From a virus (taxonomy: Duplodnaviria; Heunggongvirae; Uroviricota; Caudoviricetes): DNA of 41,518 bases. Both the position numbers and the translations under genes were made by a program. Of this stretch, positions 7,579 through 35,989 are shown in pieces. The DNA lies in IMG/VR virus record IMGVR_UViG_2802429248_000002, one strand, 5' to 3'. The notes under the pieces are model-generated. The model searched no databases. It had not been told where the DNA came from and saw only the letters and a program-made list of their open reading frames with translations. Each line of letters starts with the position of its first letter. The stretch's first letter is position 1.

Positions 7579-7731
7579 ATGTGTAAAGCGCACCTATTCT
7601 ATGGTGGGCTGTGTGGGGGCACCGAAAGGTGCGCCGGGTCCTTTGTAGCCGGTTACGCCAACCCTGCACAGTTCACCACCAACCGATTGGCGTCGGTAGT
7701 GGTGATTAACCTAACTACAAAGGTGATCACT

Positions 7732-8418
7732 ATGACTGCTAACGTAACCCCATCTGTTTTTCATTTTGAATCAGAAGCAACCATTCGAGCCATTGTTATT
7801 GATGGAAATCCTTGGTTTGTTGCCAAAGACGTTATTAAAGCTCTTCAACTGACAAACCCCACTATGTCAATAAAATCTCTTGATGATGATGAAAGGGCTA
7901 AATTTAACTTAGGCCGTCAAGGCGAAACCAATATTATCAACGAGTCAGGCCTCTACACACTGATCCTCCGCTGCCGCGATGCGGTGACACCAGGCACTAT
8001 CCCATACCGCTTTCGTAAATGGGTTACAGGTGAGGTTCTTCCTCAGATCCGCCGCACCGGAAGTTACATTAAAAACTCGCTCCCGCAAGAAGAACGCATA
8101 AAGATGGTTGCCGACCAGGTAGCCAACGCCACAGCATCAGCAGTGATGCAGGCAATGAAGATAGAGAACAAAACCTACAGCGCCCCACTAAAGCCCGGCT
8201 ACCGCAGTCTGATTCACTCGCCGTCTGGTGTTCTCGGCCTGACGGAGAACTCACTGCTGATGAATCTGCTGAACCAGTTACAGGACGACGGGCACGACGT
8301 ATCGGGCGCGGCGGCGGAGTTGACCACCATGTTCTGCTACATCGTCGGTGTGAACAAATGCCTGCGTGATATCCAGACGCACGCGGAGTACATCAACGAC
8401 AAAGCAGGGTTCTTCTGA
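7732..8418 (+). CDS. Bro-N domain protein with antirepressor-like C-terminal domain
   Basis: Start taken at MTANVT (ATG 7732, aaaggtga upstream); the longer track ORF begins in a structured leader. N-terminus (FHFESEATIRAIVIDGNPWFVAKDVIKALQLTNP) matches the Bro-N signature; C-terminus is paralogous to the 6329-6586 protein. Confidence 0.7.
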   Translation: MTANVTPSVFHFESEATIRAIVIDGNPWFVAKDVIKALQLTNPTMSIKSLDDDERAKFNLGRQGETNIINESGLYTLILRCRDAVTPGTIPYRFRKWVTGEVLPQIRRTGSYIKNSLPQEERIKMVADQVANATASAVMQAMKIENKTYSAPLKPGYRSLIHSPSGVLGLTENSLLMNLLNQLQDDGHDVSGAAAELTTMFCYIVGVNKCLRDIQTHAEYINDKAGFF

Positions 8419-22694: not shown

Positions 22695-22987
22695 TCCTGT
22701 TCACTGGCCTCTTTGGCCATCTTCAAATACTGTTCAGGGCAATGCGCCATAACGCGCTGAAACAGTTCCAGCGCCAGATTGCGTTGCCCCTCATTAAATG
22801 CCATTGCCATAGCGTCCATCGGTGAGATAGCGGAAAACACACGGCCTTTCTCCAGCACCGACCAGACAACGCGACGCCCCTGTTCACTGCTCATGACAAA
22901 GCGAATGTCATCAATTTCACGCTGCGCCATGTCACGTTGCTTACGGGCGTTTTCTTCTTTCAGTTGATCGTCTTCGTAATCTGTCAT
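22691..22987 (-). CDS. Hypothetical protein between portal and scaffold
   Basis: 98 aa, charged and helical; overlaps the portal stop. Confidence 0.45.
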   Translation of the reverse strand: MTDYEDDQLKEENARKQRDMAQREIDDIRFVMSSEQGRRVVWSVLEKGRVFSAISPMDAMAMAFNEGQRNLALELFQRVMAHCPEQYLKMAKEASEQE

Positions 22988-24663
22988 TGTGATTGCCCAC
23001 CCTGACCACTAACTGCATTCGCCATAGCTGACAAAACACTCGGATCCGAAGTTTTAGCTTCGCTTAGCGTCTTGGCACCCTGTGCCGCCGCCATCCCCAT
23101 CGCCATCATTTGTTGCTGCTGTTGCTGCTGTGCCCGTTGCTGGCGAGCCTGCTCAACCTGTTCCTGCGGAACAATGACGGTTGGAGACACTCCGGACATA
23201 TCAGCGAATGCATCGATCGCCTGATCAACGTTGAGTTTGTCGAGAGCTTCTGGTTTCGCTTGCGCAAGTTGACCAATGAAGTTAACCGTGGACGCCAGAC
23301 TGGACAGGCCGATAGACTTCTGCGCCTGAGCCATGACGGAAATGTATTCGACCTTCAGGGGCATACCTTCCATCGCGTCAGGCGGTGGCGGCAGCATGTT
23401 TTTACGCACCATCATCGAGAAAGCGCGGTCAATGAGAGGGTTAAGACATTCGTCGTTCAGACGCTCCAGAACCGGCCCCAACATCAGAAGCTTTTCTTCT
23501 TTCATTTCGATCACTGCTTCAACAGGCATCGAGCGGGTATTGATGTTCTGCAACATCATGAACAGATCGACAAAGTAGGCGCTGTTAATGATTTGACGGG
23601 TGTCCTGAATGTCTGCTACCAAATCTGCTGTACTGGGGTTAACCAGATAAGCAGGCCTGAAGCCATCCTGACCAGTAATCTGATCGATATACGTGATGTC
23701 GCCAGGAAGAAGGGAGGCGCGCTGATTCTTGAGGGAAGTCGGAGCAACCATCGGCGGATTGGTGGCTTTATCAATCAACTGCGACTTGCGCTTCTGGAGA
23801 AGCTGCAATGCCTTAACAGGTCCAAGCGCCAGCATACCAGGGCATGATGATCCATAAACATCTTCGCCGTTAACTTCCCAGCGCGGAGCCATAATTGGAA
23901 ACTCATCGAATCCGGACTCACGCAACAACTTGTCGTTATCGCCACCAACCTCGTAATAAACCGATTTGAATGGCTTGTTCTTGCTATCCAGCTTCGATGT
24001 ATCGCGGTCAATGTTCGGGTAAACCGAATGCATCACTTCAATCCACTTCTCGTAGGTGCCGCTTTCCCACATGCTTTTTACGGATTCGCTGACGTTATTT
24101 AGCCCGAACTCCTGAACAAGCTGACGAACAGTCATAGAGAACTTGCGAAAACAGGTGTCCACACTGCCACGAGGTGAGTTAGCCAGGTAGTAACTGCCTA
24201 TCGGGAATGGCATTGTGCGAATGATGTCCTCGTCATCCTCCAGCACCGCCATTGCACCAGTGCTGTATGTGCCGAGGCTTCCGTATAACTGCGGAAGAGA
24301 CTGGTAGAGATTCGACTTATTGAACATATCGTTCATGCGGTTCTGCACCGCCTCAAGCCACAACTTAACAGGGCCATAATCCATCATTTCAGGATCTGGC
24401 GTAGCCAGGCGAAACCACGGACGCGCGGGGCTTGTGATGCCTGACATCATGCCGCTGGCGAGAGTGCGCGCCGCCATAGTCCCGGTCGAATCAATAATGC
24501 GTGTATTGCGTCGATCGTTACGGTTGACCTCAGAAGTCAGAAAGCGGGAACCACGCGGGTTGATGTAATCACTCAACTCGCGCCAGTGCGGCTCGAACGA
24601 CTGACGCTCGCTTTCAAGTTGTGCGAACTGTTTGTTCAATCGCTCTTTAGTTGTTTCCGCCAT
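22984..24663 (-). CDS. Portal protein
   Basis: 559 aa; first large gene downstream of terminase in the operon; C-terminal poly-Gln/Ala tail. Confidence 0.75.
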   Translation of the reverse strand: MAETTKERLNKQFAQLESERQSFEPHWRELSDYINPRGSRFLTSEVNRNDRRNTRIIDSTGTMAARTLASGMMSGITSPARPWFRLATPDPEMMDYGPVKLWLEAVQNRMNDMFNKSNLYQSLPQLYGSLGTYSTGAMAVLEDDEDIIRTMPFPIGSYYLANSPRGSVDTCFRKFSMTVRQLVQEFGLNNVSESVKSMWESGTYEKWIEVMHSVYPNIDRDTSKLDSKNKPFKSVYYEVGGDNDKLLRESGFDEFPIMAPRWEVNGEDVYGSSCPGMLALGPVKALQLLQKRKSQLIDKATNPPMVAPTSLKNQRASLLPGDITYIDQITGQDGFRPAYLVNPSTADLVADIQDTRQIINSAYFVDLFMMLQNINTRSMPVEAVIEMKEEKLLMLGPVLERLNDECLNPLIDRAFSMMVRKNMLPPPPDAMEGMPLKVEYISVMAQAQKSIGLSSLASTVNFIGQLAQAKPEALDKLNVDQAIDAFADMSGVSPTVIVPQEQVEQARQQRAQQQQQQQMMAMGMAAAQGAKTLSEAKTSDPSVLSAMANAVSGQGGQSQ

Positions 24664-24677
24664 TTCAATGACTCCGG

Positions 24678-24884
24678 TTACTGACCAAGCAGCGTTTTAC
24701 CGCTGGTATTAGCGGTTGATGTGTCGCCCTGAGAACCGGTGAGCAGCGTAGAACTACGACCAGCAGCAGCGCGACGGCGACGAGTTTCTTCGTCGCGGGC
24801 ATCAACAACGGCGGCATCCTGCTCCTGTGGTGCTGCCTGAACTTCTGGTGTTGCAGGCACTGATGGTGAGCTACCCATGCACAT
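24678..24884 (-). CDS. Small disordered protein upstream of portal (hypothetical)
   Basis: 68 aa; GGAG 9 nt upstream of ATG; Ala/Thr/Ser-rich. The competing 24665-24904 frame starts at TTG and is disfavoured. Confidence 0.35.
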   Translation of the reverse strand: MCMGSSPSVPATPEVQAAPQEQDAAVVDARDEETRRRRAAAGRSSTLLTGSQGDTSTANTSGKTLLGQ

Positions 24885-24952
24885 ATCAATGACTCCGTAC
24901 GCAATTAAACTATTACCAATTTAACCACATATGATTTATTTATCGTAGATAG

Positions 24953-24989
24953 TTGACATTTAACGCACAAATTATTACCTTTCAGGTAA
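24953..24989 (+). promoter_or_regulatory. Sigma70-like promoter (TTGACA-17-TACCTT) overlapped by operator palindrome TTACCTTTCAGGTAA
   Basis: -35 TTGACA 24953-24958, 17-bp spacer, -10 TACCTT 24976-24981; palindrome 24975-24989 covers the -10 and start site. Points rightward into the leader and tRNA-Arg. Confidence 0.5.
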
Positions 24990-25311
24990 CCAAAGAGTTC
25001 ATTCCGGTTACTAACCTGACTGGCTTGTCGTTAAATTGAACAGGTGGAGTGAGCTTTTATTTTGAGCAGTACGGCGTATGGCACATGCGCCGGTAGCGGT
25101 CTGGATACGTTTAAGGGGCTCCCTCCCTTGCTCGGGCAAACGAACCAGGTAGCCGGAATGTGCAAGTCGAGCGGTTTTATTCCGCGCACGGGGATTCACC
25201 ATCCCGGCGATTCGGTGTGACGCCTCGGAAGAGACGAGGGTACAACGATGAGAGCATTTATGGAGCCGCGACAAAGTGTGGCGCCTTAACAGGCTAAGTG
25301 CTCTCAGCGTT

Positions 25312-25388
25312 GTGGCATTAGCTCAGTTGGACAGAGCAACCGCCTTCTAAGCGGTTGGTCGCAGGTTCGAATCCTGCATGCCACGCCA
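25312..25388 (+). tRNA. tRNA-Arg (anticodon UCU), phage-encoded
   Basis: Cloverleaf readable by eye: acceptor GTGGCAT/ATGCCAC, D-arm GCTC-AGTTGGACA-GAGC, anticodon stem ACCGC/GCGGT with loop CTTCTAA, variable TGGTC, T-arm GCAGG-TTCGAAT-CCTGC, discriminator G, encoded CCA. Confidence 0.9.
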
Positions 25389-25431
25389 GAATCACGCCTA
25401 AGGACCGTGATGCCAGAAGTTCCAGGGGCTT

Positions 25432-25473
25432 GGCGGTGATGGTTTCCCTTGAAGGGCTATCACCGCCCTTTTT
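25432..25473 (+). terminator. Intrinsic terminator downstream of tRNA-Arg
   Basis: Stem GGCGGTGAT (25432-25440) / ATCACCGCC (25459-25467) followed by CTTTTT. Confidence 0.6.
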
Positions 25474-25550
25474 ACAGCAGGACGCCATTGCGATGACTTC
25501 ATGCTGTAAACCAGTACAGCCACGGAAGGCATAACTCATTGCTTCCAGTT

Positions 25551-25576
25551 CGCCCGGTTCGCCGGGCATTTTTTTG
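25551..25576 (+). terminator. Second intrinsic terminator (TTCG tetraloop hairpin plus T7 run)
   Basis: GCCCGG-TTCG-CCGGGC hairpin (25552-25567) followed by seven T. Confidence 0.6.
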
Positions 25577-25591
25577 CTTGATGACCGCAAA

Positions 25592-25606
25592 TTACCTTAA
25601 AGGTAT
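25592..25606. promoter_or_regulatory. Operator palindrome TTACCTTAAAGGTAT overlapping the RBS/-10 region of the cargo gene
   Basis: Ends 4 nt before ATG 25611; a consensus TATAAT hexamer (25604-25609) overlaps its right arm. Confidence 0.45.
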
Positions 25607-25610
25607 AATC

Positions 25611-26429
25611 ATGAAAAACTTCAAGGTAATTAGCATGTTTGAATCGTTTAAAGAGCTGTTTTTATCTACTGCCAATACTGCCGTGAATCGAGCCAAAAAC
25701 CCTGTGCTTGGTGCTTTTGTTATGTCCTGGTGCGCCTTCAACTGGAAATCAATTCTTTATCTATTTTTTAGCAAATCAAACATAATAGATAAAATTTCAT
25801 ATATCTCAGATAACAGCACATGGAAAACTGTTATGTTTTATCCATGCTTATCTGTAATTGCTATCTGCTGCCTATTACCATGGGTAAACAATATCATTAA
25901 CGTATGGCAAGCAAAGCCTCTTGATAATAATGACTCAATCGAAAATCACCTGAAGGCAAGAAAAATCCAGCGTGAAACCAGACTGCAGAGGTTATTGGCT
26001 AAAAAAGATGTTACATACGACAAAGTTAAGACTGGCGCGGAAAAAGACATCCAAGAGATGAAAGAAGAGATTATTCGATCAAAGAATAGTATGGGGGAAT
26101 TGACTGCTGAGTTGAAAGCTAAAGATGACGAATTGAGATCCGCCAGTGCTCAGTTAGCAGCTCTAAATCATTCATTAAAAGAGATATCGGAAACTCTTGG
26201 AAGAATGAATGAGGCATATAAGACCCTCCAAAATGATTTCGACGAATACAAACTCAAATACCCTGAAAAATCTCAAATAAAAAGCCTTGCACTTGGCAAC
26301 GGCCAAACAATTAGCAACTTTTTGGAGCAACACAACTTATCCGGATTAAAATCTGGTAAGCCAAACGTTTTTAATAACTTTGGTGTTCTATCTGGATTAT
26401 CAGGTTTCGAGGATAAAAATAAAGACTAA
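25611..26429 (+). CDS. Membrane protein with C-terminal coiled-coil, function unknown (candidate abortive-infection/exclusion factor)
   Basis: Start taken at MKNFKV (ATG 25611). 272 aa; two hydrophobic helices near the N-terminus, then a long charged heptad-like region (..ELTAELKAKDDELRSASAQLAALNHSLKEISETLGRMNEAYKTLQNDFDEYK..). AT-rich by eye; opposite strand to the flanking terminase and portal genes. Confidence 0.55.
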   Translation: MKNFKVISMFESFKELFLSTANTAVNRAKNPVLGAFVMSWCAFNWKSILYLFFSKSNIIDKISYISDNSTWKTVMFYPCLSVIAICCLLPWVNNIINVWQAKPLDNNDSIENHLKARKIQRETRLQRLLAKKDVTYDKVKTGAEKDIQEMKEEIIRSKNSMGELTAELKAKDDELRSASAQLAALNHSLKEISETLGRMNEAYKTLQNDFDEYKLKYPEKSQIKSLALGNGQTISNFLEQHNLSGLKSGKPNVFNNFGVLSGLSGFEDKNKD

Positions 26430-27901
26430 GCATATGGATCGTACTCGGTAAGCGCCTTGCCTTGCTGGTTCTGCTGCCCGGGAAGTCGCAGGCGCTTTGA
26501 CACCGGGAAAGCAAACGTCAGCAGTAGCGCATCGCCTTTACCAGGCGAACGCCCAAGCCGCTCCTTGATATCTTCCTTCGGTTCGATAACGATTTTACCG
26601 TCCACTCGAACTTTGTACTCTGCCGCCGACAGATCGTCCGCTGTTTCCTGGTCATCCAGCATCCCGCCCAGCCTCAGCCATGTCTTGCATGAGTTGAACA
26701 TCTCCCCACGCTTGTTGAGCATCTGCGGGTCAGTAGACGCGCCACCGAACGGAACAAGTTGCCATGTACGACCCCAGCCGTCACCGATTGACTTCAAACC
26801 GGTTCCGTAACCGAAGTCGATGAACACCGCGTCAGCCTGATACTGGTCTTCAAAGTCAGCGATACGCTTCGCCATAATCAGATCGTCGGTAGTCTTGTTG
26901 CCAGTCCACAGCACCTTACTGTGTAGCCCCTGCCGCAGGTATATCACCGCGTCATCAACGCCTGAATATGCCGGGTCAACACCGATTATCACCGGAGCAT
27001 GCGCCACCTGCGCAGCGGTTACCACCCGTTTCATTGCCTCATCAGTAAGACCGGTAGGGATAAACTGCAATTCAGATGCATCAGGGAATATGCCGCGCAC
27101 ACGGATTTTAACGAAGTCGCTGTCTTCCCCGTAGTCATCAACCCATTTCTGCAACTGCTGTTTGTTAGTGCCTTCCACCGTTCGGCTGTCAATCTGCGCA
27201 GTTTTCCAGCGGTGTTTATATTTGCGGAAACATTCGCGGAAACGTCCGGTGTTACGTGTAGGGTTTCCGAACGCCACCCAGATAATCTCAGTGTCTTCGT
27301 CCGTTAGCGCACCCTCGGCAACTTCCCACACCAGATCCGCAATGTTCGACGCTTCATCAAATACCACGATGATGCGTTTACGCTCGTTGTGTAGTCCGGC
27401 GAATGCCTCAGTGTTGTGCTCAGACCAAGGGATTGCGTCAGCTCGCCACCGCTTGTCGTGCCCAGGATCATTGCTGTACATCGCGGTAGCGGTACAGGTA
27501 AACCAGTCTTTCGTGATAGCAAGGTTCGACCACTTGATAATTTCCGGCCAGGTCTTAGTTCGTAGCTGGTTGTCGGTGTTGGCGGTCACCACGACCTTAC
27601 AATCCTCGCAAGTGGACATGCCCCAGTTGATCAGCATTGAGATGAATGCGGATTTACCAATACCGTGACCAGAAGCGCGTGCCAGCATAAGCGGCTGATA
27701 GCGCGTCTCTGGATTCTGCAGGTGATCACGTATCTCTCGGAACGCATCAGCCTGCCACTGACGTGGGCCGGTGGCATGTGCCAGTTCAGTCCCCTCTTCC
27801 CCCCACGGGAACGCATAGAGGGCATAGCCAAGCGGATCGTGAGTGAACCCTGCAATATCCTCGATCAACTGCTCTTCAGGAGATAACGCTGTATCTGTCA
27901 C
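26426..27901 (-). CDS. Terminase large subunit
   Basis: 491 aa; N-terminal P-loop-like ATPase region (GHGIGKS), acidic nuclease-like C-terminal half; overlaps the small-subunit stop; precedes portal. Confidence 0.8.
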   Translation of the reverse strand: MTDTALSPEEQLIEDIAGFTHDPLGYALYAFPWGEEGTELAHATGPRQWQADAFREIRDHLQNPETRYQPLMLARASGHGIGKSAFISMLINWGMSTCEDCKVVVTANTDNQLRTKTWPEIIKWSNLAITKDWFTCTATAMYSNDPGHDKRWRADAIPWSEHNTEAFAGLHNERKRIIVVFDEASNIADLVWEVAEGALTDEDTEIIWVAFGNPTRNTGRFRECFRKYKHRWKTAQIDSRTVEGTNKQQLQKWVDDYGEDSDFVKIRVRGIFPDASELQFIPTGLTDEAMKRVVTAAQVAHAPVIIGVDPAYSGVDDAVIYLRQGLHSKVLWTGNKTTDDLIMAKRIADFEDQYQADAVFIDFGYGTGLKSIGDGWGRTWQLVPFGGASTDPQMLNKRGEMFNSCKTWLRLGGMLDDQETADDLSAAEYKVRVDGKIVIEPKEDIKERLGRSPGKGDALLLTFAFPVSKRLRLPGQQNQQGKALTEYDPYA

Positions 27902-28530
27902 TGATTACCATCCTGACGTTCTTTGAGTCGCTTCCTGGCTGCTGCTATGCGATCAGCAATTGTCACATTCACATTAACATCCAGACGTTCTTTGAACGCG
28001 TTAACGTCGACGTGCTTACCGATGAGCTCGAGGTTTTTCACCTTGTCGGGCCATTTCACCTTCTTCAGGATATGCTCGACATCCTCAACAGAGAGATCCG
28101 CCTCGCCATTCTCTTTTTGCAGGGAAGCCTGGGTTGTCTTGATGGTAGCGATATCCATAGCACTGAGAGAGGTACGCCAGACCTTCGGCCATTCAGCGAT
28201 CGGCTTCATCCCGCCGTCATCGTTCAGTATATCCAGCACGTCCATCTGGTCGATCTCCACCAGGCGCATGAGAACGTAATCAGCACTGACGCGCATTCGT
28301 TTGTTGCGCTCCTCCATCAACTCGGCAATCCGTTTTTTAATGCGTTCATCGCGCATCATGACACTGGCTTTAACTGCCGCTGTATTTGGGGAGAATCCTG
28401 CGTTAATCGCTGCCTGAGTCTGGTTTTCAGGCGTTTTGATGTATGACTGGCAATAAGCCTCCTGCATTGCTGTTAGTGGCTTAAATTGCGTTGATTTGCG
28501 TTTATAGGTTTTAGGTTCAGCAGGCATCAT
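27898..28530 (-). CDS. Terminase small subunit
   Basis: Start taken at MMPAEP (28530), because the longer track ORF would run through an upstream terminator hairpin. Basic N-terminal region, coupled to the large subunit. Confidence 0.55.
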   Translation of the reverse strand: MMPAEPKTYKRKSTQFKPLTAMQEAYCQSYIKTPENQTQAAINAGFSPNTAAVKASVMMRDERIKKRIAELMEERNKRMRVSADYVLMRLVEIDQMDVLDILNDDGGMKPIAEWPKVWRTSLSAMDIATIKTTQASLQKENGEADLSVEDVEHILKKVKWPDKVKNLELIGKHVDVNAFKERLDVNVNVTIADRIAAARKRLKERQDGNQ

Positions 28531-28572
28531 AACCACCGTGGTAATAGTTACCGTTGTGGTAATAGTACCATG

Positions 28573-28598
28573 CAAAATAAAGCCGCCATAGTTGGCGG
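28573..28598 (-). terminator. Intrinsic terminator-like hairpin upstream of the terminase small-subunit gene
   Basis: GCCGCC-ATAGTT-GGCGGC (28581-28598) with AAAATAAA on the plus strand, so TTTATTTT follows the hairpin on the minus strand. Confidence 0.45.
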
Positions 28599-28648
28599 CA
28601 GTATTCAAAACCCGTCAAATTCATCATGCATAATCTACTCGTGACATG

Positions 28649-28885
28649 TCACACTATTAATTTCGTTTCATGCCAGCCTTTAGTCACCCAGCATTGCGAG
28701 TCACCATTACACGGGCATGAATTAACTGGAACTCTCTCGCCGCACTTACCGCAACGTTTTCTGCTGATCGATTTTATACGCCCGCGCACACGTGCATCAT
28801 CCTGGCGGATCAGCAGCGCGATGTACTCGGCCATTTCATAGGGATCGCGACCAGGGCGCCGGGCGGCGCAGTTCCGCGCCAGCAT
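28649..28885 (-). CDS. Small Cys-rich (zinc-ribbon-like) protein upstream of the terminase operon, possible late-gene regulator
   Basis: Start uncertain: ATG 28885 has AGGAG 8 nt upstream, while the track ORF extends to a GTG at 28996. C-terminus RKRCGKCGERVPVNSCPCNGDSQCW. Confidence 0.35.
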   Translation of the reverse strand: MLARNCAARRPGRDPYEMAEYIALLIRQDDARVRGRIKSISRKRCGKCGERVPVNSCPCNGDSQCWVTKGWHETKLIV

Positions 28886-29101
28886 TTCCTGCTCCTGCTT
28901 ATCCAGCACCAGTTCAATTTTGCGCTCACCGGCGGCGGACTGCCGAGCGCGCTGCGCGGCTTTGCGTTCTGCGGGGGATTTAGCCACGAATCGCACTCCA
29001 CGCCAGATTGATTAATGACTCCCAGGTAATATAAACCCGGATACCAGCAGCCAGGCCGAAACCAATCACCATGGCATAAAGCAGAGCGTTGCACTTGTTC
29101 A

Positions 29102-29941
29102 TCACTTCACCTCCTGCGGCGGTTCTGGTAGCGGCATCCAGTGAGTTACTTTCGATGCCGGTTCTTCCCCATCGTCAGTAACTGCCCACCATTTGTTTCT
29201 CGACCAATCGTAATACCCTTCGAAGGTATCGCACTCAGTCCAGCCGTAAGACTTACCCCAACACCAAACATACTGTTTATCGTTCGGCATTCGCTCACTA
29301 CAGCTTATCCAACCATCCGGAGTTACCGGATAGTTGCGCATTGCGACCTTTAATGCCTCATAGAAGCAACCTTTCAGATTGTTGAACTGACGCCCATTTA
29401 GCGGGCCGTGTTCAGTCAGCATGTTGTGTAATTTCCATGCCGCGTCGTTTACTTCGTTGGATGACAGGGGAGGCAACTTGTAAGTTTGGCTTACAGGTTC
29501 GGCACCATGAAGCATGGCGTCGCTCCGCTCTATGCCATCCAGCGCGATTCGCAGTGCCTGAATTGTGGTAATGCTATCGTTTGGGGCTATTCCATATCGC
29601 TCGAATACAGCGATATGACCGCGCATAATCTCAGGCGTAAGCTCTTTGTAAGCATAAGCAAGCGACCCTGATGCATCATCCGGCACAACCGACGCAGGCG
29701 CGGCAGCATAAACAGGAATAACGTCCGCTTGCTCTTTATTGCTTTCATCCGTTAAAGCCCAGAATAATTTCCCGGCCGGATGTTTGAAAATATAAGCAAC
29801 TGGTTCTGCTTCCAGCGATGCCAGAGCAATTCGTGCCAGTTCTTCCGCTTCTTCTGCTGGCAGTACAACGTTGCTACCAGGTCCGTATGTTTCGCGCCAC
29901 TGTTTGATTGTCAGCAGTCGCTCTTTGGTAATAGTGGTCAT
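29102..29941 (-). CDS. Hypothetical phage protein with C-terminal DUF551-like W-rich domain
   Basis: 279 aa; C-terminus WxxCSERMPND...WCWG...W...HWMPLPEPP, typical of a recurrent prophage domain (memory). Confidence 0.5.
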   Translation of the reverse strand: MTTITKERLLTIKQWRETYGPGSNVVLPAEEAEELARIALASLEAEPVAYIFKHPAGKLFWALTDESNKEQADVIPVYAAAPASVVPDDASGSLAYAYKELTPEIMRGHIAVFERYGIAPNDSITTIQALRIALDGIERSDAMLHGAEPVSQTYKLPPLSSNEVNDAAWKLHNMLTEHGPLNGRQFNNLKGCFYEALKVAMRNYPVTPDGWISCSERMPNDKQYVWCWGKSYGWTECDTFEGYYDWSRNKWWAVTDDGEEPASKVTHWMPLPEPPQEVK

Positions 29942-29944
29942 GTG

Positions 29945-30094
29945 TTAGTCCTCTGTAGCAGGTGATACGCCGTAGTTGCATTCTTCATAGAATATGTCTC
30001 TGCCTATTTCTTCGGCATCCTCTGGCGTGTCTGCTTCAAACTCAACAACCTTGCAATCATTAAATCCTTCGATAGTCACGATGTACTTAGCCAT
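29945..30094 (-). CDS. Small acidic protein (hypothetical)
   Basis: Start taken at MAKYIV (ATG 30094) with AAGGAGAG upstream and ATGA overlap with the preceding gene stop; 49 aa. Confidence 0.4.
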   Translation of the reverse strand: MAKYIVTIEGFNDCKVVEFEADTPEDAEEIGRDIFYEECNYGVSPATED

Positions 30095-30095
30095 A

Positions 30096-30605
30096 TCACT
30101 CTCCTTTGATGCGAATGCCAGCTGCGCTTGCTGATTCTTCATATGCGCGTTTAGCAGCGTTAAGGATTGCTGCCAGTGGCGTATAGCCGCCATCCATTCG
30201 GATTGTGTTGTGGATGCCAGCCATTGTGTCGCGCAATTTGCTGTGGCTAGCAGACAGTTCTGCTATGCACTTCTCTGCGGCATCGGCTCGATCTTTTTCA
30301 CGCTGGAACATTTTGTGAGTGCGGTCTATAGCTTCGATTCGTGCCGCTGATGTCTTCTGCACGGCTTCAAGCTCAACACGCAGCTTCCCAACCGTAAGAG
30401 CAATATCCTCGTTCTCCTGGTCGCGGCGTTTGATGTATTGCTGGTTTCTTTCCCGTTCTTCCAGAAGCGCCAGCACAATATGTGGCGTTATCAAGGACTT
30501 AAATTCGGCAACAGCTTGCTCGCCTCGCTTGTAATTCTTAATCCCACCTAAATCTTTCGCGTTCTGTGCCGCCTCACGCAGTGCCTGATAGTCAATTTTG
30601 CTCAC
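30096..30605 (-). CDS. Ead/Ea22-like coiled-coil protein
   Basis: 169 aa, charged coiled-coil, early-left region of a lambdoid phage; family assignment from memory. Confidence 0.45.
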   Translation of the reverse strand: MSKIDYQALREAAQNAKDLGGIKNYKRGEQAVAEFKSLITPHIVLALLEERERNQQYIKRRDQENEDIALTVGKLRVELEAVQKTSAARIEAIDRTHKMFQREKDRADAAEKCIAELSASHSKLRDTMAGIHNTIRMDGGYTPLAAILNAAKRAYEESASAAGIRIKGE

Positions 30606-30858
30606 TGGTTGCCTCCGCTTCCCACGTTTTCAGACTTTCACCACAGAACGGGCAAAATGAAACTCGAATTGGTGATTTAGAAAATTCACCAGACCGCAGC
30701 ATGATCAGGTCTTGTGAATGAATTAATTCATGGTTATAGATTTTGTATATCAGCAGACCTTTTCGCGTCGTGTATTCAGCAGCCCGCTCCAGTGATTGTG
30801 CCAACGCCGCGCACGGTTCTATCTTGTTGCCATTAATTTTGCATTTTGACTCACTCAC
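30592..30858 (-). CDS. Small protein with C-terminal CxxC zinc-ribbon
   Basis: 88 aa; ..CPFCGESL.. near the C-terminus plus upstream Cys; translationally coupled. Confidence 0.4.
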   Translation of the reverse strand: MSESKCKINGNKIEPCAALAQSLERAAEYTTRKGLLIYKIYNHELIHSQDLIMLRSGEFSKSPIRVSFCPFCGESLKTWEAEATSEQN

Positions 30859-30904
30859 TGGTTGCCTCCTGTTAAATTTTCTGTGATATCAGCGTTTACG
30901 ACGA

Positions 30905-31912
30905 TCATTCACATACACCGGCATAAACACTGCTGCACACCGTCTTATCGTTCGTGCTCGCCAGTAGGTCAAATTGAGCGCCACCTCGGGTTGTCATTGC
31001 CCAGTCGCGATAGGTTTCGATTCCGTAGCTGTCTACGGTAACTACATCTATGCGACGTTCTGCCCGGCGTGGGTCATGAGTTGACGGAAAAAACGTTGAG
31101 TTGCCGTGGCGAGAGCAGGCTGCAACTAATCGTTCCCACTCTGCCACTCTGGCGATTTCCTCTGGCCAGCGCTGAAAAATTTCCGCCAGTTCAGATTTTC
31201 TGGCATGAATGCATGGCATACACCCAACGCGGCCGCATCCTTGTTGGTAGAGTGGGTTGGGTTTAATCCCGTGACGCCTGGCAATAGCGAAAACATCCTC
31301 ATGTAGCCAGTTGAGAATCGGACGATAGACATGCAATCCGGGGGTATTGTCCGCATCCTCCTCCCACACTTGCAGGCGTGCCCTCGATGGCGATTCCTGA
31401 GCACGCACACCCTGCCAGGAGATAACTTCGTCATATTCATCAAGCGCAGGTTGCACCACCTGAGTGCGCACTGGTTCGTGTTTCAGTTCGAATGTACAGA
31501 ACCGCGCTTTAGTACTCGGGAAACGACCTTTCCACATGCACAGGTCAAGAAATGGATTTCCGGTTGGGTGTAGGATTTCCAGCGCACGAGCAACACGTTC
31601 CGCTGCTTCATCAGGCGTCATTCCGCACTCTGCAACAAGAGATACTGGCCATTTTTCAGCAATGAATTTGCGCTTACCTTCTATCTGGCGAGTGAAGTCG
31701 GCTTTTACGCGACGAATTGGGCCCAGCTTTTGTTCCAGGTAGTCAAGGTACTCCATCGTTTGTGGGTGTTCGTGTCCCGTATCAGCAAACACTCGCTCAT
31801 GCTGTATATCGTTTTCTATGGCATACAAACATTGCGCCAGTGAGTCTTTCCCGCCAGACATGGAAACCAAATTAAAAGTGTTTTCTGCTCGGCAGCGCTG
31901 AACGATGCTCAC
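30905..31912 (-). CDS. PAPS reductase-like / PP-loop ATP pyrophosphatase family protein
   Basis: 335 aa; N-terminal PP-loop motif VSMSGGKDS; Cys-rich C-terminal half (CGRVGCMPC). Confidence 0.7.
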   Translation of the reverse strand: MSIVQRCRAENTFNLVSMSGGKDSLAQCLYAIENDIQHERVFADTGHEHPQTMEYLDYLEQKLGPIRRVKADFTRQIEGKRKFIAEKWPVSLVAECGMTPDEAAERVARALEILHPTGNPFLDLCMWKGRFPSTKARFCTFELKHEPVRTQVVQPALDEYDEVISWQGVRAQESPSRARLQVWEEDADNTPGLHVYRPILNWLHEDVFAIARRHGIKPNPLYQQGCGRVGCMPCIHARKSELAEIFQRWPEEIARVAEWERLVAACSRHGNSTFFPSTHDPRRAERRIDVVTVDSYGIETYRDWAMTTRGGAQFDLLASTNDKTVCSSVYAGVCE

Positions 31913-35019: not shown

Positions 35020-35250
35020 TCATGAGTAGAAGAAGTATGCCAGTTCTGCTTTTGAGCGCAGCCATTGTCTTGATTTACAGGCTTTAAAAAGCCCATCCAT
35101 CAATACCTTACCTGGCATTTTGCGCTTACCTGTTAAGTGAGTCTGGATATAGTGACTCGTCGTTCCGGCTTCCTGTGCGAAGGCTTCACGCTCATCCGGA
35201 GTAAGTGCAAGCCAGTGCTTTTTGAAATCGAAATGTCCGTTATCGCTCAT
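35020..35250 (-). CDS. Cro-like HTH DNA-binding protein (first gene of the leftward early operon)
   Basis: 76 aa; HTH-like segment FAQEAGTTSHYIQTHLTGKR; divergent from the repressor-like gene across an operator-rich 150-bp region. Confidence 0.45.
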   Translation of the reverse strand: MSDNGHFDFKKHWLALTPDEREAFAQEAGTTSHYIQTHLTGKRKMPGKVLMDGLFKACKSRQWLRSKAELAYFFYS

Positions 35251-35404: not shown

Positions 35405-35989
35405 ATGAAAAGTATCCAGGACGTCCGCAGGCAAAATCTCAACGACTTGATCGACCGTGAATTCAATGGTGTTCAGACGCGGATGGCTGAAAAACTTGGA
35501 ACTCAGGCAAATCTGGTAAACCGCTGGGCTCTTGGCAAGAAGGTTATCGGCGACCAGGTTGCGCGAAAAATTGAAGCTGCCGCCAATAAACCCCGTAACT
35601 GGCTTGATATCGATCGCTCGCTTTCTCAGGAAGGTTTTCAGCCTGTCGGCCCGAGTGATATAGGTCAGCTGGCTGCTCACAACCTGGAACGCTGGATGAG
35701 CGAAAGCCGCGACCTTTCAACGCAGGGAAAACTACACCGCGCATCCGGCGTCGCCCAGGTGACAATCAGCCGCCTGTTAAACAATGAGGTCAGCGTTTCC
35801 ATTTCCACCCTGGAGAATGTTGCATCCGCATTCGGGCGTCATGGCTATGAATTACTGATTCACCCGCACGACCCTGCGACTATCAACTATGACCGCTCGC
35901 GCTACGCATTGTTACCCGAAACCGAGAAAGCAAAGATCGAAAGTTACATTGAATTTGTCATCAACCAGAACGAAAAAAACAAACAATAA
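35405..35989 (+). CDS. XRE-family repressor-like protein with two HTH motifs and no S24 autocleavage domain (putative immunity repressor)
   Basis: 194 aa; HTH 1 GVQTRMAEKLGTQANLVNRW, HTH 2 ASGVAQVTISRLLNNEVSVS; no GDSM/Ser-Lys peptidase signature; flanked by operator clusters on both sides; terminator immediately downstream. Confidence 0.55.
   Translation: MKSIQDVRRQNLNDLIDREFNGVQTRMAEKLGTQANLVNRWALGKKVIGDQVARKIEAAANKPRNWLDIDRSLSQEGFQPVGPSDIGQLAAHNLERWMSESRDLSTQGKLHRASGVAQVTISRLLNNEVSVSISTLENVASAFGRHGYELLIHPHDPATINYDRSRYALLPETEKAKIESYIEFVINQNEKNKQ

Follow-up and report, generated by a model that had tools for sequence, protein, structure and literature searches.

The stretch of 41,518 nt analyzed here (in the following, the window) is a prophage of Escherichia coli of the phiV10/epsilon15 type (Uetakevirus) that is located next to guaA. 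We investigated the plus-strand block between its terminase and portal genes, which comprises a promoter with operator, a non-coding stretch, a tRNA-Arg gene, two intrinsic terminators (T1 and T2) and one protein gene, referred to as the cargo gene (Table 1). The notable finding is a structured RNA of about 190 nt within the non-coding stretch (the RNA core), which is supported by covariation, occurs very widely and lies at a position that calls for an antiterminator, while the accessory gene behind it is ordinary in kind. With a confidence slightly below even, we favor the reading that the core is a cis-acting antiterminator, i.e., an analog and not a homolog of the put RNA of phage HK022.

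To describe the fold, a covariance model was built on 15 sequences and used to align 60 clusters (92% identity threshold), which score between 68 and 211 bits. In this alignment, 95.9% of the cells of the proposed helices pair, compared to 27-42% when the partners are slid by 1-3 columns. Two-sided changes are found for 16 pairs and sum up to 146 cells vs. 35 +/- 8 in shuffles, none of which (0/500) reaches the observed value. Helix P1 and the pseudoknot were outside the model that built the alignment and thus provide independent covariation support. For locus L232, for instance, the CACC/GGUG pairing of the pseudoknot is swapped for GGUC/GACC. The many G-U pairs fix the plus strand as the RNA strand. 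RNAalifold suggested a long-range pairing (G15-C17/G108-C110; C32-G34/C96-G98), which was dropped in favor of the local hairpin P1 because G18/C30, C17/G31 and G16/C32 covary. An extra pairing GGCACA/UGUGCC is possible and, both sides being invariant, lies beyond the covariation test. Judged by this comparative evidence, the RNA element is real and under selection.

The preliminary description of the block had called this region a GC-rich leader of about 320 nt without a credible open reading frame (ORF). The stretch is indeed non-coding, but it is not empty, given that it holds the conserved RNA. RefSeq annotates no gene within 24990-25311 in an identical prophage. Two minus-strand ORFs (87 aa and 90 aa) were taken as spurious, as they run opposite to the RNA, tRNA and terminators and neither has a Pfam match or is called by RefSeq. 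The 90-aa ORF (25318-25590) matches phrog_4647 (E = 1e-53), runs antisense to the tRNA and both terminators, and is annotated in several phage records, e.g., as PhiV10p04 (L001 3219-3470). It is probably an annotation artifact that is conserved only because the RNA features are. Spurious ORFs are at times called across or beside the RNA, i.e., mEp460_037 across or next to the element and the phrog_4647 ORF over the adjacent tRNA. When Rfam 15 was searched with permissive E-values (<= 1 or <= 0.1), only the tRNA was matched within 24600-26600, and no Rfam 15 family covers the element in phage P1, the lambdoid loci or seven further loci. Likewise, we found no description of the RNA core in the searchable literature (full text, using sequence strings and keywords).

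Some short stretches of the core resemble ribosomal RNA. The linker between P4 and P6, (G)AUACGGUGUGAC(A/G)CC (25211-25225), shares 12-14 nt with positions 1817-1831 of the E. coli 23S rRNA (AUACGGUGUGACGCC), and the window-type sequence UGCAAGUCGAGCGG is alike in 14/15 nt to UGCAAGUCGAACGG of the 16S rRNA. With E-values of 0.003-0.2 in a 5.5-kb target, rRNA mimicry was considered too weak to build on.

The core is found in 1840 of 5426 complete E. coli genomes (34%) with up to four copies per genome. It is annotated at none of the matching places, 554 of which are on plasmids that we take to be P1-like phage-plasmids. A BLAST search with 24940-25320 gave matches, all in unannotated DNA, to lambdoid phages (mEp460, cdtI, Stx2c, some Stx2a phages, Ayreon, 2H10), to P1-like phages (P1, P7, D6, SJ46, RCS47), to phages of Klebsiella and Enterobacter, and to a single phage whose record names Stenotrophomonas; the RNA occurs in Lastavirus phages as well. 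Pattern scans recovered the core in at least 120 viral contigs. Among species-representative genomes, they found 24 loci from about 21 species (some with two or three), nearly all of them Enterobacterales. The outliers are two short contigs of metagenome-assembled genomes labelled Bacillota and Lachnospiraceae, which are probably contamination.

In many lambdoid prophages, the RNA comes after cI and a promoter resembling PL and before a terminator and the early-left operon. In mEp460, the cI stop is followed by the cI terminator, two OL-like operators, the sequence TTGCAT-17-TATCTT and the RNA, after which come a tRNA-like domain, a terminator of -20.7 kcal/mol, a second hairpin with U-tract, and the first ORF of the left operon. 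The operators upstream of the RNA are of the TTGC-N7-GCAA type, i.e., the same as in OR. This layout recurs in 10 of 12 further viral contigs, where the RNA starts 100-150 nt after a gene placed like cI and a run of same-strand ORFs begins 450-900 nt further on. For L141, the sole case scanned with Pfam, the cI-placed gene encodes helix-turn-helix (HTH) and Peptidase_S24 domains. From the terminator to the first ORF, the scan revealed no sigma-70-like promoter in either L005 (mEp460) or L141.

In Uetakevirus phages, the RNA belongs to a slot that is conserved while its protein gene is not. The preliminary description had interpreted the whole block between terminase and portal as a horizontally acquired moron or defense cassette. 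A recent acquisition of the whole block is not supported, since terminase and portal are apart in all Uetakevirus relatives examined; the split and the first promoter/operator are found at the same point in phiV10, TL-2011b, epsilon15, SPN1S, BUCT711 and Tyrion. The T1-T2 spacer and T2 are also present in all these relatives, and every one except epsilon15 (which carries a deletion) has the RNA, a tRNA or tRNA-like module, and an intact T1. The idea of an acquired cassette is therefore retained for the protein gene, which is variable cargo in a fixed slot, but not for the slot, RNA, tRNA and terminators, which are conserved in the genus. That is, as far as the compared genomes tell, only the protein gene is swappable, while the slot itself is a standing feature of phiV10/epsilon15-like phages. 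Its size is also smaller than previously given, namely about 1.5 kb from the end of the gp3-like gene (24884) to terL (26426) instead of about 1.7 kb.

The junction between terminator and cargo speaks for read-through. The U-tract of T2 runs directly into AAGGTG..ATG of the next gene, whatever gene this is (phiV10, epsilon15, SPN1S, Tyrion, L127), and for phiV10 the search gave no promoter-like site. In BUCT711 (L135 2400-2650), an extra ORF of about 80 aa is located between T1 and the T1-T2 spacer, with its ribosome-binding site (RBS) GGAG right after the U-tract of T1. Given an RBS that abuts a terminator without a promoter, such genes would be transcribable only by read-through from the RNA promoter. 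This is the reason why an antiterminator is favored here.

The start of the unit appears to be governed by the immunity system. Its first promoter, which had been described as operator-overlapped at 24953-24989, is confirmed in the sequence and across relatives: it has a weak -10 and is absent from the list of a strict consensus scan, and a TTGACA/TTGACC-17-TACC(T/C)T arrangement is kept in seven Uetakevirus relatives, among them phiV10, TL-2011b, SPN1S, BUCT711, Tyrion and epsilon15. To assess the overlapping palindrome (operator O1), we scanned the whole window with the pattern TTACCTNNNAGGTAA (up to 2 mismatches) and 100 shuffles for comparison. The pattern has 16 sites vs. 0.96 expected (0/100 shuffles that high). 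Sites of the palindrome TTACCTnnnAGGTAA are spread over seven intergenic regions, including the gap between two divergent genes, a cro-like ORF (35020-35250) and a gene for an HTH repressor-like protein of 194 aa (35405-35989), with two sites, and the vicinity of a Bro-N antirepressor-like gene (7579-8418), likewise with two. The epsilon15 counterpart of O1 is annotated as 'repressor, lysogeny'. Based on site count, the cro/repressor location and this annotation, the palindrome is read as the immunity operator of a dispersed regulon, to which the repressor would bind. With a single motif recurring at numerous promoters, among them those of the immunity region and of an antirepressor gene, this organization resembles the C1 regulon of phage P1. 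In P1, the RNA itself is part of the C1-controlled ban operon, which also speaks for repressor control.

A second operator (O2) had been reported to overlap the RBS of the cargo gene. The operator is present but overlaps the -10 of a promoter-like site and not only the RBS. This cassette promoter with its operator accompanies the same cargo family in L127, L130 and BUCT711 (the latter with a variant operator) and is missing in phiV10 and TL-2011b. As each promoter is overlapped by the immunity operator, we predict that the lysogen keeps the unit silent, i.e., the RNA/tRNA unit and the cargo would be repressed in the lysogen and expressed on derepression. In this respect the unit differs from a classic moron, which is expressed by the lysogen, since expression is predicted at induction instead. 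We infer that the block is an early transcription unit of phiV10/epsilon15-like phages under control of the immunity repressor.

A cis-acting antiterminator would fit into this unit as follows. Once the repressor leaves O1, RNA polymerase would start near 24989 and produce the pseudoknotted core, then the long stem with its variable tip, and then tRNA-Arg(UCU). The folded core would act in cis on its own polymerase, as put does, resulting in read-through of T1 and T2 into the slot gene. RNase P cleavage at the 5' end of the tRNA would release the latter, which decodes AGA and AGG, i.e., codons that are frequent in the AT-rich cargo. For HK022, putL lies only a short distance downstream of PL, i.e., at the equivalent position, and put RNA consists of about 70 nt with two stem-loops (PMC9378689). 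Furthermore, a survey from 2025 suggests that N-less lambdoid phages with such a left operon may use a put-like mechanism (PMC12315714). The defining trait of put is the suppression of termination in cis by binding RNA polymerase (the beta' zinc-binding domain). Like put, the RNA described here comes first in the transcript of a repressor-controlled early promoter (PL) in lambdoid relatives, precedes terminators and has no protein partner encoded next to it. On the other hand, the core is larger, with about 190 nt, five or more helices and a pseudoknot that is backed by covariation. Its range extends to P1-like, Uetakevirus and Lastavirus phages, and in most cases a tRNA or tRNA-like domain comes after it. 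Ten put sequences are known. Homology to put was rejected, as the covariance model finds nothing in HK022 24000-31000.

The N/nut and Q/qut systems of lambda (the latter with PR', 6S RNA and tR') share the general layout, in that transcription from an early or constitutive promoter soon ends at a terminator and distal genes need read-through, but here no N-like or Q-like gene is adjacent. Some 3' stem arms contain a boxA-like UGCUCUU; these arms covary rather than conserve their sequence.

Several observations weigh against the antiterminator. In length the core exceeds put about threefold, and the two are unrelated. The cargo gene of the window has its own promoter-like site, such that read-through is not strictly needed, and a polymerase with full resistance to terminators would continue, in antisense direction, into the terminase genes. 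Neither the tRNA or tRNA-like module nor the hypervariable tip has an obvious role in antitermination. In phage P1, the core lies between trnI (tRNA-Ile) and ban, inside the C1-controlled ban operon, with no terminator seen in the roughly 60 nt from core to ban and none within about 800 nt downstream. For the lambdoid phages, the absence of the antiterminator N from mEp460 and Stx2a_WGPS2, which speaks for the RNA, covers annotation and Pfam only. Epsilon15, the genus reference phage, is viable although a deletion has removed its tRNA, half of T1 and the greater part of the RNA, i.e., the RNA is dispensable at least in the laboratory. What remains of the core in this phage (L002 3530-3620) is its first 60 nt or so, which now adjoin the 3' half of T1; the deletion has brought together two UUCCCUUGA-like loops, namely GGGUUCCCUUGAUGCU in the tip of P2 and GGUUUCCCUUGAAGG in the loop of T1. 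Our confidence is lowered by the viable epsilon15 deletion, the self-promoted cargo of the window, and the prospect of a resistant polymerase entering terL.

The apical loop of P2 (25104-25145) and the loop of T1 (25445-25455) have a common UUCC(C)UUG(A) motif in many members (e.g., L134, L130).

In phiV10-type phages, a specific 5' segment precedes the core, while in other relatives the promoter is only 4-30 nt away. At its 3' side, a long stem of the form (C)CAYAAC...GUUGUGG is formed in the minimum-free-energy structures of about 35 representatives, whose arms belong to at least nine sequence types and nevertheless always pair, and its tip carries inserts of 11 to about 150 nt across members. 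GUUGUGG is followed by a genuine tRNA, i.e., Arg-UCU (window, phiV10, BUCT711, L141) or a CAU tRNA (L232), or else by a closed tRNA-like domain GUUGUGGUG..CACCACAAC; most members have a tRNA-like domain without CCA end or no tRNA. Phage P1 and some other types consist of the core only, without stem and tRNA-like module. Terminators homologous to T1 (UUGGCGGU..ACCGCCCUUUUU) are found 3' of the RNA in lambdoid and Uetakevirus settings, about 120-650 nt from the core and with unrelated inserts in between. Both the tRNA-Arg(UCU) and the two putative intrinsic terminators of the preliminary description were confirmed in the sequence, the former by a cloverleaf and anticodon found by ARAGORN and Rfam, the latter by a G+C-rich hairpin with U-tract on the transcribed strand in each case.

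Given these features, the main rival is that the RNA is a stable product acting in trans, which we regard as rather unlikely. Here, the tRNA or tRNA-like module would serve as RNase P signal that trims the 3' end to ..GUU within a protective stem, the invariant single-stranded motifs would bind a host machine, the tip would set specificity (as decoy, sponge or guide), and T1/T2 would simply end the RNA gene. Such a product explains the module and the variable tip better than antitermination does. It is in line with a self-contained unit of promoter, RNA and terminator, with a T1 that is homologous across contexts, with a 19-nt motif invariant in 60 clusters next to a hypervariable tip inside covarying arms, and with the real tRNA or closed tRNA-like domain after GUUGUGG. 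In phage P1, moreover, the CCA end of tRNA-Ile is immediately followed by the core, and both belong to a cluster of RNA genes. What it does not explain is downstream gene expression, i.e., the early-left operon of lambdoid phages and the promoter-less Uetakevirus cargo past the terminators. Furthermore, an antisense target of the tip was not found inside the prophage (the best match of 11 nt is at chance level), and phage P1 and several other types lack stem and tRNA-like module altogether.

The c4 RNAs of P1/P7 and the CI RNA of P4, which are immunity RNAs, provide a precedent for non-coding phage RNAs cut from longer transcripts. They are processed by RNase P, which counts for a trans-acting product in the case of P1 c4, and the adjacency of our RNA to tRNAs suggests RNase P involvement as well. 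In contrast to these RNAs, no antisense target was found here, and size and fold differ; the Rfam C4 model does not match the element but matches elsewhere in the same lambdoid loci (L005, L006). In lambdoid loci with the RNA at PL, C4 antisense RNA and isrK are found in the rightward operon beside a Rha antirepressor gene (L005 206-394; L006 208-409).

An extension of the trans-acting product, which we consider improbable, is a modular device whose pseudoknotted scaffold binds a host machine, whose tip gives target specificity, and whose tRNA or tRNA-like domain recruits RNase P. The latter would either mature the RNA or, similar to an external guide, direct cleavage. The tandem modules of L201, L271 and L147 and the T-arm-like tip hairpins would then represent alternative 'programmes', and temperate enterobacterial phages would carry a programmable RNA weapon or decoy that is switched on at induction. 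As to the underlying observations, L201, L271 and L147 each hold two tandem CACAAC-stem-GUUGUGG modules, and T-arm-like hairpins (CUGGUUCAAUUCCAG, UCCGUUCGAUUCGGA) are found in some tips or downstream domains (L006 2690-2790, L142, L201, L269).

Still a little less probable, in our view, is a conditional attenuator of riboswitch or T-box type that responds to a ligand, or to how tRNA-Arg(UCU) is charged or processed, by deciding on termination at T1/T2. The complex pseudoknotted fold, the invariant unpaired nucleotides and the adjacent tRNA are consistent with it, and the 5' arm of T1 begins with UUGGC, which is complementary to the GCCA 3' end of the tRNA-Arg. However, no alternative pairing partner for the 5' arm of T1 is conserved (z mostly about 0, -3.2 to +1.5, at varying positions), and both the distance from core to T1 and its content vary widely, which makes a hairpin switch unlikely. 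Most members lack the CCA end or the tRNA, and no T-box or riboswitch family matches. A leader peptide was considered for the 13-codon mini-ORF MRAFMEPRQSVAP (25248-25289), which is located in the 5' arm of the long stem of this type and has AGA as codon 2 and GAGG 8-9 nt upstream; it was dropped since the AUG is missing in several stem types. In mEp460, AGG is found at the position of codon 2.

That the 320 nt are a passive 5' leader of a tRNA precursor can practically be dismissed, since their position directly upstream of a tRNA and the lack of a protein-coding signal stand against strong covariation, presence in 34% of complete E. coli genomes, and conservation in P1-like, lambdoid, Uetakevirus and Lastavirus phages, mostly with no tRNA behind.

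Regarding the antiterminator again, the RNA is a concrete and testable candidate for how N-less lambdoid phages pass early terminators, given that it is located proximal to PL in many such prophages, in the ban operon of phage P1, and in the accessory slot of phiV10/epsilon15-like phages. If it acts this way, it would constitute a second, much larger class of RNA that reprograms RNA polymerase without protein factors and would account for the activation of swappable accessory genes upon induction. Should it do something else, it is still among the commonest uncharacterized structured RNAs of enterobacterial prophages.

All elements listed in the preliminary description (promoter, operators, non-coding stretch, tRNA, two terminators, ORF) were recovered at or near the places assigned to them; their refined coordinates are summarized in Table 1.

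Table 1. Features of the block and its neighborhood. Positions refer to the window unless a locus label is given.
Feature	Position	Strand	Remarks
Sigma-70-like promoter TTGACA-17-TACCTT	24953-24981	+	-35 at 24953-24958, -10 at 24976-24981
Immunity operator O1, TTACCTTTCAGGTAA	24975-24989	.	overlaps -10 of first promoter
Non-coding stretch ('leader')	24990-25311	+	GC 0.54
5' segment of transcript, phiV10-type specific	24990-25058	+	resembles 3' half of stem module (..GGAGUGAGCU..)
Conserved structured RNA core, about 190 nt	25059-25252	+	covariance-model match 195 bits
Core helix P1 (hairpin)	25072-25092	+	
Core helix P2	25096-25104 paired with 25145-25153	+	
Core invariant 19-mer GGUAGCCGGAAUGUGCAAG	25148-25166	+	invariant in 60 clusters
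Core helix P4 (hairpin)	25191-25205	+	
Core pseudoknot, P4 loop CACC with GGUG	25197-25200 with 25214-25217	+	
Core helix P6 (hairpin)	25223-25239	+	
Long stem UACAACG..CGUUGUG	25241-25314	+	3' end overlaps first tRNA bases
Hypervariable tip of long stem	about 25263-25291	+	
tRNA-Arg, anticodon UCU (tct)	25312-25388	+	ARAGORN; Rfam RF00005, 73.3 bits; RefSeq in identical prophage
Conserved hairpin AUCACG-CCUAAGGAC-CGUGAU after tRNA or tRNA-like module	25391-25411	+	window, phiV10, L130, L140, L207, L217, L259
Intrinsic terminator T1	25432-25473	+	14-bp stem 25432-25467, then CTTTTT; -22.9 kcal/mol
T1-T2 spacer	25476-25551	+	alignable in phiV10, epsilon15, SPN1S, Tyrion, BUCT711, L127, L130
Intrinsic terminator T2	25552-25575	+	GCCCGG-UUCG-CCGGGC 25552-25567, then ATTTTTTT (U7); -11.2 kcal/mol
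Promoter-like site ATGACC-17-TATAAT of cargo cassette	25581-25609	+	O2 covers spacer and -10
Operator O2, TTACCTTAAAGGTAT	25592-25606		one mismatch to pattern
Cargo gene, 264 aa	25635-26429	+	272 aa if start 25611
Large terminase gene terL	26426-27901	-	convergent with cargo gene; both stop codons overlap
Small terminase gene terS	27898-28608	-	
gp3-like small gene	24678-24884	-	first of head block on other strand; phrog_831, E = 2e-36
Portal gene	22984-24663	-	
Further operator sites	6238, 7358, 7451, 32942, 33004, 34950, 35287, 35335, 36047, 36108		
RNA core copies elsewhere	L004 2489-2688; L005 2489-2681		phage P1; mEp460

The terminase-portal region on both sides of the cargo gene shows 97-99% identity to phiV10, TL-2011b, ZX5 and O157 typing phages and about 80% identity to SPN1S and epsilon15. 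The gp3-like gene is the homolog of epsilon15p03 and PhiV10p06. For the cargo gene itself, the earlier assessment as AT-rich holds (GC 0.366 vs. 0.488 for the window). Among its Arg codons 5/8 are AGA/AGG, compared to 3 AGG and 0 AGA among the 97 Arg codons of terL, terS, portal, capsid gene and gp3. This codon usage fits a tRNA-Arg(UCU) that helps to express AT-rich accessory genes. Phage-borne tRNA-Arg(UCU) genes are known, e.g., the argU-like genes of lambdoid and Stx phages. The tRNA found here is likewise canonical and reads AGA/AGG; in contrast to the others, it is fused to a structured RNA and, in relatives, interchangeable with non-canonical tRNA-like domains.

Concerning the content of the slot, phiV10 and epsilon15 hold a Phage_gp49_66 gene, TL-2011b, SPN1S and Tyrion other unrelated small genes, and BUCT711, EC.W1-9 and E. 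coli and Salmonella prophages relatives of the window protein. That is, at least four cargo types are found in one fixed slot, as expected for moron-type genes. The full cargo version of the window is present in 53 of the 5426 complete E. coli genomes. In L127 (5800-5960), the cassette has replaced the middle of a phiV10p03-like gene, of which seven codons after AAGGTG..ATG and its own terminator remain. Phage morons such as lambda bor and HK97 gp15 are comparable in being variable AT-rich genes between conserved modules, and in this prophage the gene has its own promoter-like site, too; the difference is a slot whose RNA, tRNA and terminators are conserved in the genus and whose promoters are covered by operators.

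The cargo protein had been described as a 272-aa protein with two transmembrane (TM) segments and a coiled coil. ORF and predicted topology were found as described, but the length is likely 264 aa, because 27/27 aligned homologs begin at Met-9 (the second Met) of the window ORF, which favors ATG 25635 as start. The protein matches phrog_4780, a family without known function, with E = 3.2e-137 (residues 9-272 on profile positions 1-267 of 275). Among its 177 homologs, those with a source name are all Enterobacteriaceae 'hypothetical' proteins. Residues 1-165 are conserved, while the C-terminal coiled-coil tail is hypervariable. A search with the N-terminal domain yielded 1442 clusters (50% identity), which all differ in their tails; among those inspected, none has a name or a Pfam domain. 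This membrane domain also defines a family of more than 1,400 clusters without a Pfam entry. An AlphaFold model of the N-terminal domain (pLDDT 85) shows an amphipathic helix, TM1, a short helix (conserved, juxtamembrane), and TM2 extending into a helix of about 100 residues; the full-length model is poor (pLDDT 62). Foldseek found nothing with E < 1 for this domain in the PDB (top match: NaK channels, probability 0.16), and Pfam and PDB profile searches with the protein returned coiled-coil noise only.

Probably, the cargo protein is an early-expressed effector in phage-phage or phage-host conflict. A more specific proposal, that of a horizontally acquired exclusion or abortive-infection effector forming a single-gene defense cassette, is possible but somewhat doubtful. 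The gene is AT-rich, swappable within a fixed slot and equipped with its own promoter-like site, and the protein combines a conserved N-terminal part of 165 aa from a large domain family with a hypervariable tail and a topology loosely like small pore-forming proteins; a lone copy in Cronobacter also supports the proposal. Against it stands that there are no PADLOC, Pfam, NCBI-named or PDB matches beyond coiled-coil noise; within PADLOC-DB 2.0, only coiled-coil segments of DndD, PbeC, LmuB and JetC were hit (best E 2e-5, residues 107-260). Furthermore, no partner genes are present, and the operator on the promoter predicts silence in the lysogen, i.e., when classic prophage defense genes act. 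The cargo gene has no terminator, and its stop overlaps that of terL. P22 SieA/SieB and lambda RexB are likewise small phage inner-membrane proteins that vary between related phages, but no similarity in sequence or fold was detected and their predicted regulation is opposite to that of the cargo, which would be repressed in the lysogen. The Cronobacter copy is found in Cronobacter dublinensis (L132 6001-6828), where a 275-aa member of the cargo family stands alone in the chromosome, flanked by cold-shock and QueH-type genes and far from any phage genes.

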